A stretch of DNA of 64,000 bases, from IMG/VR virus record IMGVR_UViG_3300035310_000070; one strand, written 5' to 3'. This document shows positions 54,439-64,000 of the stretch, piece after piece. Source of the DNA: a virus. Below the pieces are notes generated by a model that worked only from the letters and a program-made list of their open reading frames with translations, searched no databases and was not told the origin of the DNA. How positions within the stretch are numbered: position 1 is the first letter of the stretch; each line of letters opens with the position of its first letter. Made by a program: the position numbers and the translations under genes.

Positions 54439-55713
54439 CAAGCCACACTGTCTTCTGAGTCGGGCGCAACCTCACCTTCCTGAGCCGCCGGCCTGTCGGT
54501 CGCGCTTATATGCATTGGCATGACCAGCACATCGGGGCTGCCCAAGTTGAAGAATCTCCCCGGAGACGACGGGTCTGAGGTCTCCAGCAGCACCGGCCCC
54601 GACTTCCCTGCCAGGTAATCGTTCAGATACCTGATGTGGAACGCGATTTTGCCCTCGCCGCCCTGGGCGTGGCCGCGAACGCTGCTGGAGACTAGCCCGG
54701 CCTCTTCAGCTTTGGCAGATAAGACCAGACTGTTCTCGGACCAGTTGAGACGGACGCCTTCCGCTTCCGCCGGCCGCGATGTCCGCCAGGGACCTGATGG
54801 CCCGCAACGCTTCCTCGGCGTCAAAAGTCACCTTGTGGGGCAGGTCAGTGGGGATAAGCTGGTGGTAATCAGGGAATGACCCCTGGGTCAACTGGACCCA
54901 GATGGTCACTGCTCCGTGATGAAAGCTCAAGAGCGTCGGAGTGAACCTAATAGCCGCCATGCGGCTGGCCACGGCTAGCATCGCCATCGGGAAGCTCCCA
55001 TCCTTTTTCAGGGGATTGGAGATGCCGGCATCCGGGACCGTGGGCTGCTTTTCTATCAGCTTCCACACCTTGGCCAGGGTGTGCACCGCTGCGGTGGGCA
55101 CCAGCAAGTGTTTCAGCCCTTCCGTGGAAGGGTCGGGCGCAGGTAGAGCCACAGGGATGGTTTGCCAGGCCAGGCGGAAGCCATCGGCGCCGACCATCTC
55201 TACTGGGTCCCCCAGGGCGATGCACACGCACTGCAGGACCGGGCGGCTGTCCTCGGTGGCCGCGTATCCAGCGAGGGCAGTAGCGGTCTTGAGAAAGAGG
55301 TCACCGTCCACCTGGCCCTCACCGATGGGTTGCAGCTCGGGCAAAGATCCCTGGCCCTCACCGATGGGTTGCAGCTCGGGCAAAGGAGGGAAGTCAGCGA
55401 CTTCTCCCGGCACTGGGAAACCAGCAATGGCGGCCCCTGCCGTTAGGTTGATCCACTCGCCTTCACGGCTGAGTGTGAGGCGCGTCGGACCGGGGATATT
55501 CTTCAGCAGATTGAGTACCTGTTTGTGAGGCAAAACTACCGGGTCGTCGGTGGCCTCGGGGAAGTCCAGGTTGATTGCCGTCTCCAGGTTGGTGGCGTAG
55601 GCCCTGCCCTGGCCGAGCACCACGTTTTGTAGGATGGGCAGCGTGGTCCTCTTTGCCACGGCGGGCTCTAGGACTTGGAGTGCATACCTTAATCTTTGCA
55701 CAGTTGTTTCCAT
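54435..55713 (-). pseudogene. dnaN: DNA polymerase III beta-clamp homolog, frameshifted near 54765, with a 39-bp duplication
   Basis: TTLPILQNV, ATNLE, DSRPVL, ADGFRL, GSFPDY; domain 3 (IAFHIRYLND) in another frame. Confidence 0.8.
55311..55385. repeat. 39-bp tandem duplication
   Basis: A 36-bp identical block starts at 55311 and at 55350. Confidence 0.95.
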
Positions 55714-55801
55714 GATTGCCTCCTTGCTTTCTTATTAAAGTCTCGAGCGTGACGCCTTGAATAACCCCGAGCTTATTAAACTATGCTTTATCACCTCCTT
55801 C

Positions 55802-56269
55802 TCAGAACATCCTCGGCCTTTCGATGACGACTGGGGGCGATGGCACCTGGGTGCGGATGTCTTCGCACTCTGGCAGAGGGACCTTATTGCCGTTGCGGTA
55901 CTCGTCCAGATACTGCCCAATTAGCCCGTACTCCGGCGCCACTACGAGCCCACAGCGGTCCCAGTGGTCGTGCCAAATCGCCATACGCAGCCGGGCGATA
56001 TTGTCGAGCTCCACCTGGTAGAAACTGCCTTCCGGGTCTTTGCTTTTGACAAGCACCCTGTCTACTGTATAACCCTTCACCCGCTTGGTCTTCGCTACTT
56101 GCCATGGCCAGCACTCGACTTGAACGTAATCGTCGGCCAGCACCGTGATGATGTCCGGTGGGCGTTTGTCTCCTGGTGGAGCCCCTCCCGAGAAAATGCT
56201 GTTGACCAGGCCCTCCCGGCGGTCGGATAGACGGACCCGCTCGTTGAGTCTGAATGCGTTAGTGTCCAC
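55802..56269 (-). CDS. Hypothetical protein
   Basis: 155-aa operon ORF. Confidence 0.65.
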   Translation of the reverse strand: MDTNAFRLNERVRLSDRREGLVNSIFSGGAPPGDKRPPDIITVLADDYVQVECWPWQVAKTKRVKGYTVDRVLVKSKDPEGSFYQVELDNIARLRMAIWHDHWDRCGLVVAPEYGLIGQYLDEYRNGNKVPLPECEDIRTQVPSPPVVIERPRMF

Positions 56270-56388
56270 AGCTAAAACATCCTCTCTTTCGGACTGTCCG
56301 GGCTCTGCGCAGCCTCCAGCGATTTAAGGTCCTCTTTGGTGAGCCACCCCTGGTCAAACATGTTCTCACCTCTCTAGGAGACCAAAAT

Positions 56389-56423
56389 TGTGACCCGATC
56401 CCCCAAGCGGGGATCGGGTCACA
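56389..56423 (-). terminator. Perfect 15-bp hairpin closing the array transcript
   Basis: TGTGACCCGATCCCC stem, 5-nt loop, then ATTTT on the minus strand. Confidence 0.75.
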
Positions 56424-56591
56424 CCCTGCCGCGCCGCGCCCAGCCGCGCCGCACCAAGCCCTGCCAGGCCAGGCCTAGCCCCGCCCGGCCCCGCCGAGCC
56501 CGGCCTTGCCTCGTCACACCGAAGATGATTACAACCTCGCCTCGCCTCACCACACCACGCCAAGCCTCACCTGGCCGTGCCACGCCCAGCC
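56421..56591 (-). ncRNA. GGY-NN pentamer array A (tracts of 12 and 18 units), candidate guide RNA
   Basis: Every unit is GGC/GGT plus a variable dinucleotide; fills the gap after the ParB stop. Confidence 0.8.
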
Positions 56592-56599
56592 CCGACGTG

Positions 56600-57271
56600 T
56601 TACGCTGATTGTTGCAGCTTCTCGGCCAGCAGCTCAAATAGCCGGTTTAACGTGGCGACCACCTGGCTCCGCTTCCAGTCAATGGAGTCTGTTTCCAGTA
56701 GCGCCACCACCTGGTTGATGTAGAAAAGCTGGTCCATGCCCCCCGCTCGCCGCAAGTGACCCGCTTGTTCCTCAGTCAGTGTCTCGCCCGCCAGGTGCCC
56801 CATCGTGCGTTTGAGAACCTCACCGCTGGCCGCCACGCGCTCCAGCAGCATTTTTTCGGCCCGTTCTACTGTGATGTTTAAGGCCCCGGAAATCACTTCA
56901 CGGGTGATCCCCATCTCTTTAGCGACCAACAAGCACCTGGTTTTATCGTAGAGGGTTAAATTGCGCCCATGCGCTGCGTTCAGCATGACAGCCTCTTGAA
57001 ACATGGAGGCTTCGTCGGGATATGTGCGCAACTCAACGTCAATCTCGGCATTTGGGCCGTGAAGTTTTTGGCTGGCGCGGACCCGGTGGAAGCCGTCGAT
57101 GATCCGCTTGCTCTTGCGGTCTGCGATAACCGGAGGGAATGTCGCGCCTGCGGTCATGGCTTCCGCCATCTCGCGCACATGGTATTCGTCCACCTGGGCC
57201 CGGGGATACAGGTGGAAATCCTGGACTAGAGAACTGGCAGGTATTTTTGTTATGAGCTTTCTTGCTGCCAT
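56600..57271 (-). CDS. ParB/Srx-domain protein
   Basis: FPPVI...IIDGFHRV...LNAAHG. Confidence 0.9.
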   Translation of the reverse strand: MAARKLITKIPASSLVQDFHLYPRAQVDEYHVREMAEAMTAGATFPPVIADRKSKRIIDGFHRVRASQKLHGPNAEIDVELRTYPDEASMFQEAVMLNAAHGRNLTLYDKTRCLLVAKEMGITREVISGALNITVERAEKMLLERVAASGEVLKRTMGHLAGETLTEEQAGHLRRAGGMDQLFYINQVVALLETDSIDWKRSQVVATLNRLFELLAEKLQQSA

Positions 57272-57301
57272 AGTGCCCCCTCAAAACCGGATTAGGGTTA
57301 G

Positions 57302-57467
57302 ATACCTCGCCTGGCCCGGCCTCGCCCGGCCTCGCCTGGCCCGGCCTCGCCTGGCCTCGCCGCGCCAGGCCCGGCCCGGTCGCACCGAAGAGGATTACAA
57401 CCTCGCCTCGCCAAGCCACGCCCCGCCTGGCCTCGCCGCGCCTCGCCTCGCCTCGCCTCGCCAGGCC
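57302..57467 (-). ncRNA. GGY-NN pentamer array B (tracts of 14 and 15 units), candidate guide RNA
   Basis: Begins right after the RAMP-like stop codon; shares a 34-nt linker with array A. Confidence 0.8.
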
Positions 57468-57477
57468 TTGTCACACT

Positions 57478-58053
57478 TCAGGACTCGATTACCCGCATAG
57501 AGCCCACATCAAAGGTCCCGTACCAGCCCTTTTTCTGCGGCCGGTAGTCCAAAATCCCAATTGATTGCCCGGATACGCTCAAGGCGTCTATCAGAACCGA
57601 TTGAATCCCCTCGGCGTCCAGGATGGTCGTATTCAGGTTGAAGTTGAACACCACAACCCAAGGGGGGTCGATTCGTGCCCTTGACCGCATGATGCCTTGA
57701 CGTTGCACCACCGCCCGCTGGGTATCCACGACCCAATCGCGTATCGGCTCGCCGGCCGGTGTGGTCAGCGGAAACAGCAGGTCCGACGGCAAGAGGGAAC
57801 CGGCAATGATGGGGGATGCGGCACGACGGTTGATGCGAAGCCCGGTACACCCAGCCAATATATTGTTCCGAACCGCCACGGCGGGGACGCATAGGTCGCC
57901 ATTGGGGAGGCGGTAGGTGCTGGCTTTTGCTTCGTCTTCCGGGGAGGGGATGGCCTTTCTGCCAATCGAGCGTGTAGATGGGAACATTGAGCCACTGGGG
58001 TTGTGCATCAAGAGGGGGGTCTTGCCAATGAGGGTGCCTTGAAGAATCGCCAT
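57478..58053 (-). CDS. Stand-alone RAMP/Cas7-like protein (Vipr-like), 191 aa
   Basis: TLIGKTPLLMH, YRLPNGDLCVPAVAVR, Gly-rich end GQSIGILDYRPQKKGWYGTF; GGAG RBS. Confidence 0.75.
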   Translation of the reverse strand: MAILQGTLIGKTPLLMHNPSGSMFPSTRSIGRKAIPSPEDEAKASTYRLPNGDLCVPAVAVRNNILAGCTGLRINRRAASPIIAGSLLPSDLLFPLTTPAGEPIRDWVVDTQRAVVQRQGIMRSRARIDPPWVVVFNFNLNTTILDAEGIQSVLIDALSVSGQSIGILDYRPQKKGWYGTFDVGSMRVIES

Positions 58054-58174
58054 GATTATTCTCCCTGGACCGCTACTCAAATTCACGGCCGCTTCAAATA
58101 AGTTGGTCTAGTTTCAAATCCCAGAATTGATAACGCCCGTTTTACTTCATCGGCGCCCTCCTAAAATGGAGTCC

Positions 58175-58317
58175 CTGCCTCGCCATGCCGAGCCAAGCCG
58201 CGCCTAGCCCCGCCCCGCCATGCCCTGCCAGGTATTTCGGATAAGGTCATCCTTGCCCTGCCCGGCCTCGCCTTGCCACGCCTTGCCAAGCCCCGCCTTG
58301 CCAAGCCCCGCCAAGCC
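58175..58317 (-). ncRNA. GGC-NN pentamer array C (tracts of 13 and 11 units), candidate guide RNA
   Basis: 24 perfect GGC-NN units split by a 23-nt linker. Confidence 0.8.
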
Positions 58318-58347
58318 ATCCCGTGCTTCGCACAAATTGAAATTATG

Positions 58348-58545
58348 TCAACTAGAGACCGTCTTAAAGCGCTTGCCGCAAGTACAAACCCATTTATAAA
58401 AATCGTTATGCGACGTACTTCGGTCTGGGTGGGCAAATTGGTTACACTGAGGACATCGGTGGTGTTTACTCTCGAAGCGTCTTTTACTACGGCTCCCACA
58501 CAGATTAAAAGCGTGGTACATCTGTACGGGACGATGTGTGGTCAC
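58348..58545 (-). CDS. Small Zn-ribbon protein
   Basis: CPQC...CTCG. Confidence 0.6.
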   Translation of the reverse strand: MTTHRPVQMYHAFNLCGSRSKRRFESKHHRCPQCNQFAHPDRSTSHNDFYKWVCTCGKRFKTVSS

Positions 58546-58551
58546 TGAGCC

Positions 58552-58965
58552 TCAGTTTTCCACCGGCGGGGCTAGCCGCTTGCCCAGAAGCAAAAAGCCC
58601 CAGCCGGGCGCCCAGTCAGCAAACTCCACTCCCAGGTACTCGAAGGTGAGTAGCTCGCCGGTGGCTTTGTTCAGGAAGGAGACGGCTTTCTCGTCGGGGA
58701 CCCACTTCTGTCCTCGAAGCTCCAGCTGCTTTTCGATACCTGACAGACCCAAGGTCAGAGCTTCTCGGAGGGTCAGCCTGGGTTCTTCCGAACCGTCACT
58801 CGCCTTATCGCGATGCCCCCAACTCAGCCGGTATATCCGCTCGTCCGCCAGGTCCCACCGCCGCATGTCGAACGGTTTCACCGACCGGCCGTCGGGGTTG
58901 ACCGGGACCATCATGTCCCAAAGGCTGGCCTCGCATTTGAAAACGATCGGGTCTTTGTCAACCAT
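58552..58965 (-). CDS. DUF3850/ASCH-like protein
   Basis: AAGGAGG RBS; FK...KPFDMR..D...GW.FL.LG. Confidence 0.55.
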   Translation of the reverse strand: MVDKDPIVFKCEASLWDMMVPVNPDGRSVKPFDMRRWDLADERIYRLSWGHRDKASDGSEEPRLTLREALTLGLSGIEKQLELRGQKWVPDEKAVSFLNKATGELLTFEYLGVEFADWAPGWGFLLLGKRLAPPVEN

Positions 58966-59055
58966 GGTGCGCCTCCTTGTCCGTCTGTTGCGCCCCAGAT
59001 AACGCTTTGTCGATTGCGGCCCGCAGCTCATTCAAAACTTCCTCCTCATTCACGT

Positions 59056-59247
59056 CTACCCCTCCCTTTGAGCAAGCTGCTCACCGGCCTCGGCCTGCTC
59101 GTAGAATTCCGTCTTGCAGGATCGGGACTCCACCGAGCCCAGGGCCTGTTCTAGGCTCCGGGTGAGGTCCATGCACCCGGCGCCCACGACGCCAATAGCC
59201 TCCACCGTGATGGTGCCGTCTTTGGAAATCACGACCTCTATCTCCAT
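59056..59247 (-). CDS. DUF2997 protein
   Basis: I..DG.I.VE..G..G..C...T..LE..LG...K.EFY. Confidence 0.9.
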   Translation of the reverse strand: MEIEVVISKDGTITVEAIGVVGAGCMDLTRSLEQALGSVESRSCKTEFYEQAEAGEQLAQREG

Positions 59248-60283: not shown

Positions 60284-60795
60284 GCCTCCACTGAAATATG
60301 GATTTTCGTGGCTCCGTCTTCCAACTGTTCCTCCCAGCTGCTGTACCCTTGCCGCTGGGCCTCCAGGATGGCCGCTGAAACCCCATATCCCTGACGTAGC
60401 CTATTAAGGTCACGCCCCAACACCTGCTCTAACCCACCCGCAGCCCAAGAGTCGTACAGTAACTTATAGCTGCCGTCGCCCCACCGTTGCACCCCGATTT
60501 CGTAGTCGGCGCCCGGCGCCTTGATTGCATGCGTGCATTTCCCGAGGTCGTCCACCCCGAAGCCCTGGGGTAGCGGGGTGGAGCCCACGTAATGGCCATA
60601 CCATTCGTAGCGCCTCTGGCCCTCCATGAACTGCAAGCCCAGGCGCTGGCAGGCCAACTTCAGGGCCTCCAGGTTCTTGACCTCAAGTTTGAGCGAGGTC
60701 ACATGGCACTGGCCAGAGCAAATATTCTTGAGAAGCAGAGCTGTTTTAGGCTCTACATCGATTCTAAGCAGGGCGAAATCACACATGTTGTTCAT
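60280..60795 (-). CDS. DUF1257 (Ycf35-like) protein
   Basis: HVTSLKLEVKNLEALKLAC..LG; YEIG; D.W; L.Q.Y. Confidence 0.88.
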   Translation of the reverse strand: MNNMCDFALLRIDVEPKTALLLKNICSGQCHVTSLKLEVKNLEALKLACQRLGLQFMEGQRRYEWYGHYVGSTPLPQGFGVDDLGKCTHAIKAPGADYEIGVQRWGDGSYKLLYDSWAAGGLEQVLGRDLNRLRQGYGVSAAILEAQRQGYSSWEEQLEDGATKIHISVEA

Positions 60796-61747
60796 TCTCC
60801 TTCAGTAAATTGCGGAATCGTTCCACTTTCCGCTCTAGGCAAATAGTGCTCTGCGAATAGAAAGCTCTATAAAGAAGATGCACTTCTGCCTTATGAAACC
60901 GTAAGGAAAAGGTACCCGGGCTGTTGCTTTTCTCATATAGCTGTTTGGGGTATCTCGTCCCTATCAACGAATGAAGCCTCTGTGCCACCTCCTGCAGTAA
61001 GTTGTGTTGACCAGTGAACGATGCTTCATATTGCGCCGCTAAAGTTTTACCCCGGACTGCCTTTCGGGTGCTCTTCTTCCTGTAAATACTCCCGTCGGCG
61101 TCAAAGAACCCTCGCGCAAAGTGTAGAAACACAGAGTCAGGAATAGAGGCTGTGCTCTTTACCCTGAACCCGATCGCTAAGAGACGACCTCGGAGGCGGC
61201 GGCTGCTGACAACCAAGCTCACAACACGCCGCAGCCGATAATTGTCATGGATCTCCCACTCCCTGAGGCGTCCTTCGTAGGCAAGCAGCCGCGCGATGGC
61301 CTCTAACCAAGTTCTGTCTTGCACCTTGAGGTGTATCTCCAGCCTATTCAGCTTCTTGCCTTTTGTTTCTGGTAGGCATCCATCGCCATACATCACACCA
61401 ACAAAATAAGCGGAGGCTTCAGTCCAGTCGTCCAGAACGTAGTCATTAACATGAAAGCGTCGGTTCTTGGAGTAATCGATGTAATCTCCCGGTGGTGTTT
61501 GGACCAGCCAGTAACACTTTGAACAGAGGCCGCGGCCCTCATATTTGCCAGTTCGACTGCCGCAGCGTGAGCACTTATCCCAATGTCGGCTCCATTGTCT
61601 TGGGCAGACCGCGCAATAGGCCCACGTATGTCTTAAATGCGCGGCTTTTTGAGCCGAAATGAAGAAGTGGCCACAGCTCAACGAGATGTTAAAACCCTTT
61701 GGCTGCAGCGGAGTAATTGCTAGGATTTGGCGGGCCGCTCTAATCAC
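60779..61747 (-). CDS. LAGLIDADG homing endonuclease with N-terminal Zn fingers
   Basis: YFVGVMYGDG and FARGFFDADGS. Confidence 0.9.
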   Translation of the reverse strand: MIRAARQILAITPLQPKGFNISLSCGHFFISAQKAAHLRHTWAYCAVCPRQWSRHWDKCSRCGSRTGKYEGRGLCSKCYWLVQTPPGDYIDYSKNRRFHVNDYVLDDWTEASAYFVGVMYGDGCLPETKGKKLNRLEIHLKVQDRTWLEAIARLLAYEGRLREWEIHDNYRLRRVVSLVVSSRRLRGRLLAIGFRVKSTASIPDSVFLHFARGFFDADGSIYRKKSTRKAVRGKTLAAQYEASFTGQHNLLQEVAQRLHSLIGTRYPKQLYEKSNSPGTFSLRFHKAEVHLLYRAFYSQSTICLERKVERFRNLLKENEQHV

Positions 61748-63672: not shown

Positions 63673-63772
63673 CCTTACCACCCCAGTCCAGCCCAAGCCG
63701 TTCCAATCCAAGCCACCCTTTGCCACTCCAATCCATCCGACACCATGCCAAGCCAGGCCAACCCCAACCATT
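63673..63772 (+). repeat. CCA-NN pentamer array D (20 units)
   Basis: 15 of 20 units begin exactly with CCA; the dinucleotides vary. Confidence 0.85.
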
Positions 63773-63787
63773 TTCATAGGAGACCTC

Positions 63788-64000
63788 ATGCACAAAACAT
63801 ACCGCTTACATCTAAGGGATGTTTTCGGAGGTGACGGGGAAGTCCGCCACATCACCCTCGAAGAGCCACGGGTCACTCGTACCCGGTCCACCACCACCAA
63901 ACGCCTGGATACCAAGGTTGCAACTGAGAGTGGTTATGAGGAGCTCCAACTCGAGAAGTCCCTAAAAGAGGTGGCTACTTTCCGTAAGGACGCTGAGGGT
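63788..64000 (+). CDS. Truncated hypothetical protein, possibly a second RAMP-like protein
   Basis: AGGAG RBS; open to the window end: MHKTYRLHL...ATFRKDAEG. Confidence 0.6.
   Translation, partial: MHKTYRLHLRDVFGGDGEVRHITLEEPRVTRTRSTTTKRLDTKVATESGYEELQLEKSLKEVATFRKDAEG

Follow-up and report, generated by a model that had tools for sequence, protein, structure and literature searches.

The short linker that separates the paired tracts of GGYNN pentamers in this viral DNA is, with a probability that we put at about 0.65, the boundary between consecutive guides (vrRNAs) of a phage VIPR system. Analysis of the window (the whole stretch of 64,000 nt) established the identity of the system, the anatomy of its arrays, the register in which the linkers meet their tracts and the conservation of the outer layers of the linker; we infer that the precursor is cut or trimmed at the exposed spacer of the linker into six vrRNAs, a route for which a hairpin would be unneeded. 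Within this known system the linker is an ordinary component; it does not reveal a new kind of system.

VIPR (Viral Interference Programmable Repeat) is an RNA-guided DNA-silencing system. It is related to CRISPR and was first described in 2026. Its parts are Vipr, which is a minimal RAMP protein with an RRM core, a G-loop and a thumb, a set of accessory vap genes, and vrRNAs of about 100 nt; in each vrRNA, 9–16 GGY/NN repeats lead into a conserved 3′ tail, which the authors likened to the crRNA repeat handle (bioRxiv 10.64898/2026.04.26.720920). In the published architecture, one Vipr protomer sits on each repeat and the 3′ tail caps the filament, as seen in the SUSP1 cryo-EM structures.

Judged by its sequence, the locus studied here is a VIPR system with six predicted guides: it brings together a minimal RAMP protein related to that of SUSP1, hypervariable GGY/NN tracts on the vipr strand, an adjacent accessory gene and a viral context. 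A profile of the Vipr family built from 25 homologs matched PDB entry 36pp ('SUSP1 Vipr protein') over its full length (residues 1–180; E = 1.1e-6), and the AlphaFold (AF2) model of the protein (pLDDT 88.5) found its best Foldseek matches among Csm3/Cas7 chains with TM scores of 0.5–0.6; the 191-amino-acid product is thus assigned as Vipr with a predicted Cas7 fold, and its family has 872 representatives. All six tracts in the window, of 11–17 units each, lie on the vipr strand, as do 245 of the 246 tracts in 87 related loci. Of the 56 loci with a homolog of the neighbouring ParB-like gene, 53 have it immediately after vipr, and 44 of the 55 loci with room for the gene carry it. The surrounding genes (RecT, sliding clamp, AAA ATPase) belong to a phage replication module, in which a LAGLIDADG-type endonuclease open reading frame (60779–61747) also lies between a DUF1257-like gene and the AAA ATPase gene, and a perfect 39-bp tandem duplication (1.9 copies; 55311–55385) is found within the sliding-clamp-like gene. 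A TRAP-like RNA-binding track, a centromere or iteron array beside ParB and an R-loop origin had also been considered for the arrays, and all three were dropped once the neighbouring gene proved to be vipr.

Three minus-strand intergenic regions each consist of two GGYNN pentamer tracts with a short non-repeat linker between them, and the order along the minus-strand operon is array C, vipr, array B, the ParB-like gene, array A and a terminator. Outside these regions, a search of both strands of the 64-kb window at the same stringency gave no comparable GGYNN runs (0 expected). The features in operon order are as follows.

58253–58317, minus strand: predicted vrRNA tract C1, 13 GGCNN units in an in-register parse
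58230–58252, minus strand: array C linker, 23 nt, beginning GGATGACC..ATCC
58175–58229, minus strand: predicted vrRNA tract C2, 11 units
57478–58053, minus strand: vipr gene, 191 amino acids, RAMP/Cas7-like, between arrays C and B
57470–57477, minus strand: first copy of the boundary motif (AGTGTGAC), abutting the vipr stop codon and 2 nt ahead of tract B1
57403–57467, minus strand: predicted vrRNA tract B1, 13 units, the final two being GGCGA GGCGA (57403–57412)
57377–57402, minus strand: array B linker, 26 nt, made up of a GGTTG pseudo-unit, a private spacer and GGTGC-GACCG in the register of B2
57307–57376, minus strand: predicted vrRNA tract B2, 14 units, ending 33 nt short of the start codon of the ParB-like gene
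56600–57271, minus strand: ParB/Srx-like accessory gene, 223 amino acids (phrog_1033, E = 1e-10)
56537–56591, minus strand: predicted vrRNA tract A1, 11 units, some of them GGT, with terminal GGCGA GGCGA
56511–56536, minus strand: array A linker, 26 nt, 24/26 identical to the array B linker
56426–56510, minus strand: predicted vrRNA tract A2, 17 units
56389–56425, minus strand: fourth copy of the motif (GGTGTGAC, at 56418–56425) and terminator-like hairpin

The fourth motif copy is in register with A2 and forms the 5′ arm of the hairpin that follows this tract, a structure resembling an intrinsic terminator (15 pairs, 10 of them G-C, then ATTTTGG) that closes the operon. No sigma-70 promoter was predicted in a scan of 55700–59100; as a linker of 26 nt also has no room for one, this was counted in favour of reading the linker as a boundary within a single transcript.

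Several further observations were made on the tracts and their surroundings. The guides of array B are of low complexity: in B2 (57307–57376) a block of three units (NN = CG, CA, GA) is repeated about three times (TRF period 15/25), and in B1 (57403–57467) NN is GA in 8 of the 13 units, so that the decoded targets of these guides would themselves be periodic DNA. When the six guides were compared with the window under the gapped (xNN) code, no self-target rose above the background of shuffled guides. A ribosome-binding site and the next start codon typically lie 10–35 nt beyond terminal tracts (58140–58175 here; also L019, L022 and L027 among the related loci), and loading of Vipr on a terminal tract could affect translation of the gene downstream; the interval after C2 (58140–58175) contains a mini-ORF of two codons (ATG AAG TAA). 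On the plus strand, about 19 CCANN pentamers occupy 63673–63790 and stop about 10 nt before a ribosome-binding site and the ATG at 63788.

The sequence-only reading had drawn attention to a 34-nt segment shared by arrays A and B, and this segment is indeed identical at 32 of 34 positions between them (minus strand, 56546–56513 against 57412–57379), with differing NN content around it; NN identity collapses right at its edges. The motif RGTGYGAC was likewise found where it had been reported, at four tract boundaries (57477–57470, 57386–57379, 56520–56513 and 56425–56418), which puts four occurrences within 1,063 nt, whereas the rest of the window has six on its two strands together (Poisson P = 2.6e-7). 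Its proposed relative in array C, GGATGAC, is present (58252–58246) but is only loosely similar to RGTGYGAC, and a better match to it is found in the 3′ flank of A2 and in the GGATG...ATCC tail of related locus L008.

By comparison with related loci, the linker resolves into three layers. The first is a 3′ end signature of the preceding guide, GGCGA GGCGA GGT, in which the last two units with fixed NN are followed by a GGT pseudo-unit, and this is common across the clade. The last two GGC units have GA or AA as their NN in 59% and 62% of the de-duplicated tracts of other loci, while the figure for inner units is 19% (Fisher 1e-31 and 1e-35, values that overstate significance and are upper bounds because the related loci are not phylogenetically independent). 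The 3 nt after the last unit are GGT, GGA or GGG in 82% of tracts.

The second layer is the middle spacer, TAATCNTCTTC, of about 13–16 nt, which is private to this lineage. It was found in no other locus examined, including those of Vipr relatives at 74–76% identity; these closest relatives (L003, L009, L010 and L147–L150) carry different linkers. An exact search of IMG/VR with the linker core gave one chance match in an AT-rich coding region (L001). Searches with GGCGAGGCGAGGTTGT in viral contigs and with a degenerate 20-mer in genome contigs returned 57 loci, among which only L138 had units upstream; these units are a plain (GGCGA)n microsatellite, and L138 was rejected as a relative of the linker.

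The third layer, GGTGY-GAC-NN, stands in pentamer register with the tract downstream. Among 211 tracts, 28 (from 17 loci, 16 besides the window) have GAC at exactly −5 relative to the first unit, and no other offset accounts for more than 3; in 66% of the 211 tracts a C occupies position −3 before the first full unit, where it corresponds to the Y of the first YNNGG unit. In L038 and L060, whose Vipr proteins are about 45% identical to the one described here, GGTGN-G-GACNN is the entire junction between abutting guides, which are 6 nt apart. Flanks that are repeated within a locus (a partner in the same locus with at least 8/10 identity) are common, at 58 of 171 for 5′ flanks and 52 of 171 for 3′ flanks against 1.1 expected.

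The expectation that the linker would be conserved at other loci was therefore borne out for its two ends, both of which have counterparts at tract boundaries, but not for its middle. As its parts recur at the ends and starts of guides, the linker marks guide boundaries. Neither boundary motif is obligatory, since A1 and C1 have no GTGYGAC upstream and the 3′ flanks of B2, C1 and C2 differ. Linker lengths vary among the relatives without a preferred register, and some relatives join guides without any linker: in L014 a tract of 27 units (2196–2330) has an internal GGCGA GGCGA at units 12–13 and no linker, and probably represents a head-to-tail fusion of two guides that is marked by the end signature alone. 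With the full linker present in two copies only, its internal conservation could reflect recent duplication.

The idea that the tracts are single guides parted by the linker can be retained, as they appear to be separate guides with their boundary at the linker; the hairpin that was offered as the signal for parting them cannot. It had been suggested that GUUGUA pairs with UGYGAC around a C(UUCG)G loop, and a nuclease would then cut at the base of this hairpin in the manner of Cas6, an explanation that we consider quite unlikely. Both copies allow six pairs to be drawn, but the drawn structure has a free energy of +5.3 kcal/mol in copy A, where three of the six pairs are G-U, and of −0.2 kcal/mol in copy B; the C(UUCG)G loop is not stacked on the stem and has five unpaired bases on one side. 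The substitution that was read as turning G-U into G-C does strengthen one pair, although this U-to-C change is one-sided and not compensatory, and two full copies with a single one-sided change hold no two-sided covariation. Folded freely, linker B reaches −9.1 kcal/mol (z = −2.1), in keeping with a structured element, but linker A reaches −1.7 kcal/mol, no better than its shuffles (z = +0.8), and the two copies fold differently. Vipr and Cas6 are both RAMP proteins, and one linker of L008 contains GGUUG...CAACC with the same topology; against this, two of the three GGTTG linkers of L008 have no partner arm, and the motif serves as a junction without the upstream arm in L038, in L060 and in the copy before B1. 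Clade-wide, stems of at least 5 pairs starting from the terminal GG occurred in 66 of 165 cases compared with 58.4 ± 5.1 in shuffles, which is not an enrichment. The array C linker can form a small GGAU/AUCC hairpin (MFE −12.5 kcal/mol with its flanks; z = −2.5), and a permissive Rfam scan of 56200–58500 returned no family and one sub-threshold match to an sRNA, which fell on the terminator hairpin. A hairpin in the linker is not supported.

A linker with no sequence-specific role, left behind by the segmental duplication that expanded the arrays, also seems rather unlikely to us. Gene conversion or recent copying would then have kept the linker alike while changes built up at the NN positions, and any stretch other than GGY would be enough to part the filaments. 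The recurrence of GTAATC...GTGTGAC at the 3′ end of vipr and in the B1 leader agrees with this, and the likeness of the linker to the first-tract leader of L147–L150 hints that these are copies of a single ancestral segment; the absence of the linker middle from all other loci, the free variation of lengths and registers and the relatives that need no linker point the same way. Copying would not explain why both linker ends recur in a constant register in many independent loci, nor why identity falls abruptly at the first NN beyond the 34-mer. An action of the element as DNA, for example as a site bound by the ParB-like protein or as one where guides are exchanged by recombination, we hold to be highly improbable. 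The arrays do flank the ParB-like gene, and vap proteins were predicted in the VIPR paper to interact with DNA; but the linker is neither palindromic nor symmetrical in the way of parS, a role at the level of RNA is indicated by the strict strand bias of the tracts and by the fixed register, and in related loci the motif is no commoner than chance away from tract boundaries.

We therefore favour the linker as the boundary between consecutive vrRNAs. By analogy with the SUSP1 cryo-EM structures, we expect every GGYNN pentamer to hold one Vipr protomer, so that a non-GGY stretch would end one filament and let the next begin. Filaments would form on each tract, the fixed last units and the GGT pseudo-unit would end a guide, and GGTGY-GAC-NN would mark the 5′ start of the following one; the private spacer, left exposed between them, would be the site where nucleases cut or trim the polycistronic precursor. 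The expected products are six vrRNAs with repeat tracts spanning 55–90 nt plus flanks, and their release should require no hairpin. A stronger form of this proposal, possible but in our view doubtful, is that GGTGY-GAC together with GGCRA-GGCRA-GGT constitutes a sequence-specific maturation signal of the ParB-associated VIPR clade, at which Vipr or a host RNase would cut one operon transcript and free the six guides as well as the vipr and ParB-like mRNAs. In that case, making guides and expressing the effector genes would be coupled through the maturation cuts.

VIPR has already been published together with its guides and their tails (bioRxiv 10.64898/2026.04.26.720920), and the present analysis makes modest additions to the guide boundary as favoured here: an end signature shared across the clade and the GAC boundary, both of them testable marks for guide maturation. 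Those parts of the text of the 2026 VIPR preprints that were available describe no processing route for vrRNA arrays that are free of ribozymes. In the large ParB-associated Vipr clade (this locus and about 87 relatives) guide boundaries appear to carry a short two-part signature and not the 40-nt pseudoknot of SUSP1; this signature helps to annotate guide ends and to predict targets, and it defines mutants for processing experiments.

Among known systems, the CRISPR repeat and crRNA handle offer a broad parallel, in that a conserved segment alternates with a variable guide and the guide is coated by proteins of the RAMP family. Unlike in CRISPR, there is no spacer-repeat periodicity, and pentamer repeats with a gapped code make up the guide; there is no cas1, cas2 or cas6, and the linker is neither palindromic nor stably folded. 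The vrRNA arrays that are interspersed with hammerheads differ as well, the linkers here being too short for a self-cleaving ribozyme and the Rfam scan of 56200–58500 having found none.

The nearer comparison is with the type II VIPR of the Escherichia phage SUSP1, where the tails are of about 40 nt, form a hairpin and pseudoknot supported by covariation and are followed by about 35 nt more before the next guide (bioRxiv 10.64898/2026.04.26.720920, 10.64898/2026.04.26.720927). In both systems a constant element lies 3′ of a hypervariable GGY/NN tract, is repeated between guides and delimits guides of roughly 100 nt. Both also have one or more last units with fixed NN and then a pseudo-unit (GGTRT and GGG/GGA in SUSP1; GGCGA GGCGA and GGT here), and the end signature described here occupies the position at which the SUSP1 3′ tail begins. 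In contrast to SUSP1, the tracts here are 26 nt apart, with no sequence similarity to that tail, no convincing structure and no room for the SUSP1 pseudoknot; a tail of the SUSP1 type (hairpin and pseudoknot) was not found in the 26-nt linker, nor was a stem signal found across the clade.

A possible likeness in arrangement is to the 'staggered' vrRNA arrays named in the legend to fig. S18 of the VIPR discovery preprint (bioRxiv 10.64898/2026.04.26.720920), where, as far as that legend goes, guides abut and the end of one is the start of the next. The junctions of L038 and L060 may be of this published type. Their GGTGN-G-GACNN matches GGTGY-GACNN of the window in the same register to the downstream tract, and the window differs from them by 16 extra nt ahead of the motif, namely the GGTTG pseudo-unit and an 11-nt private spacer.
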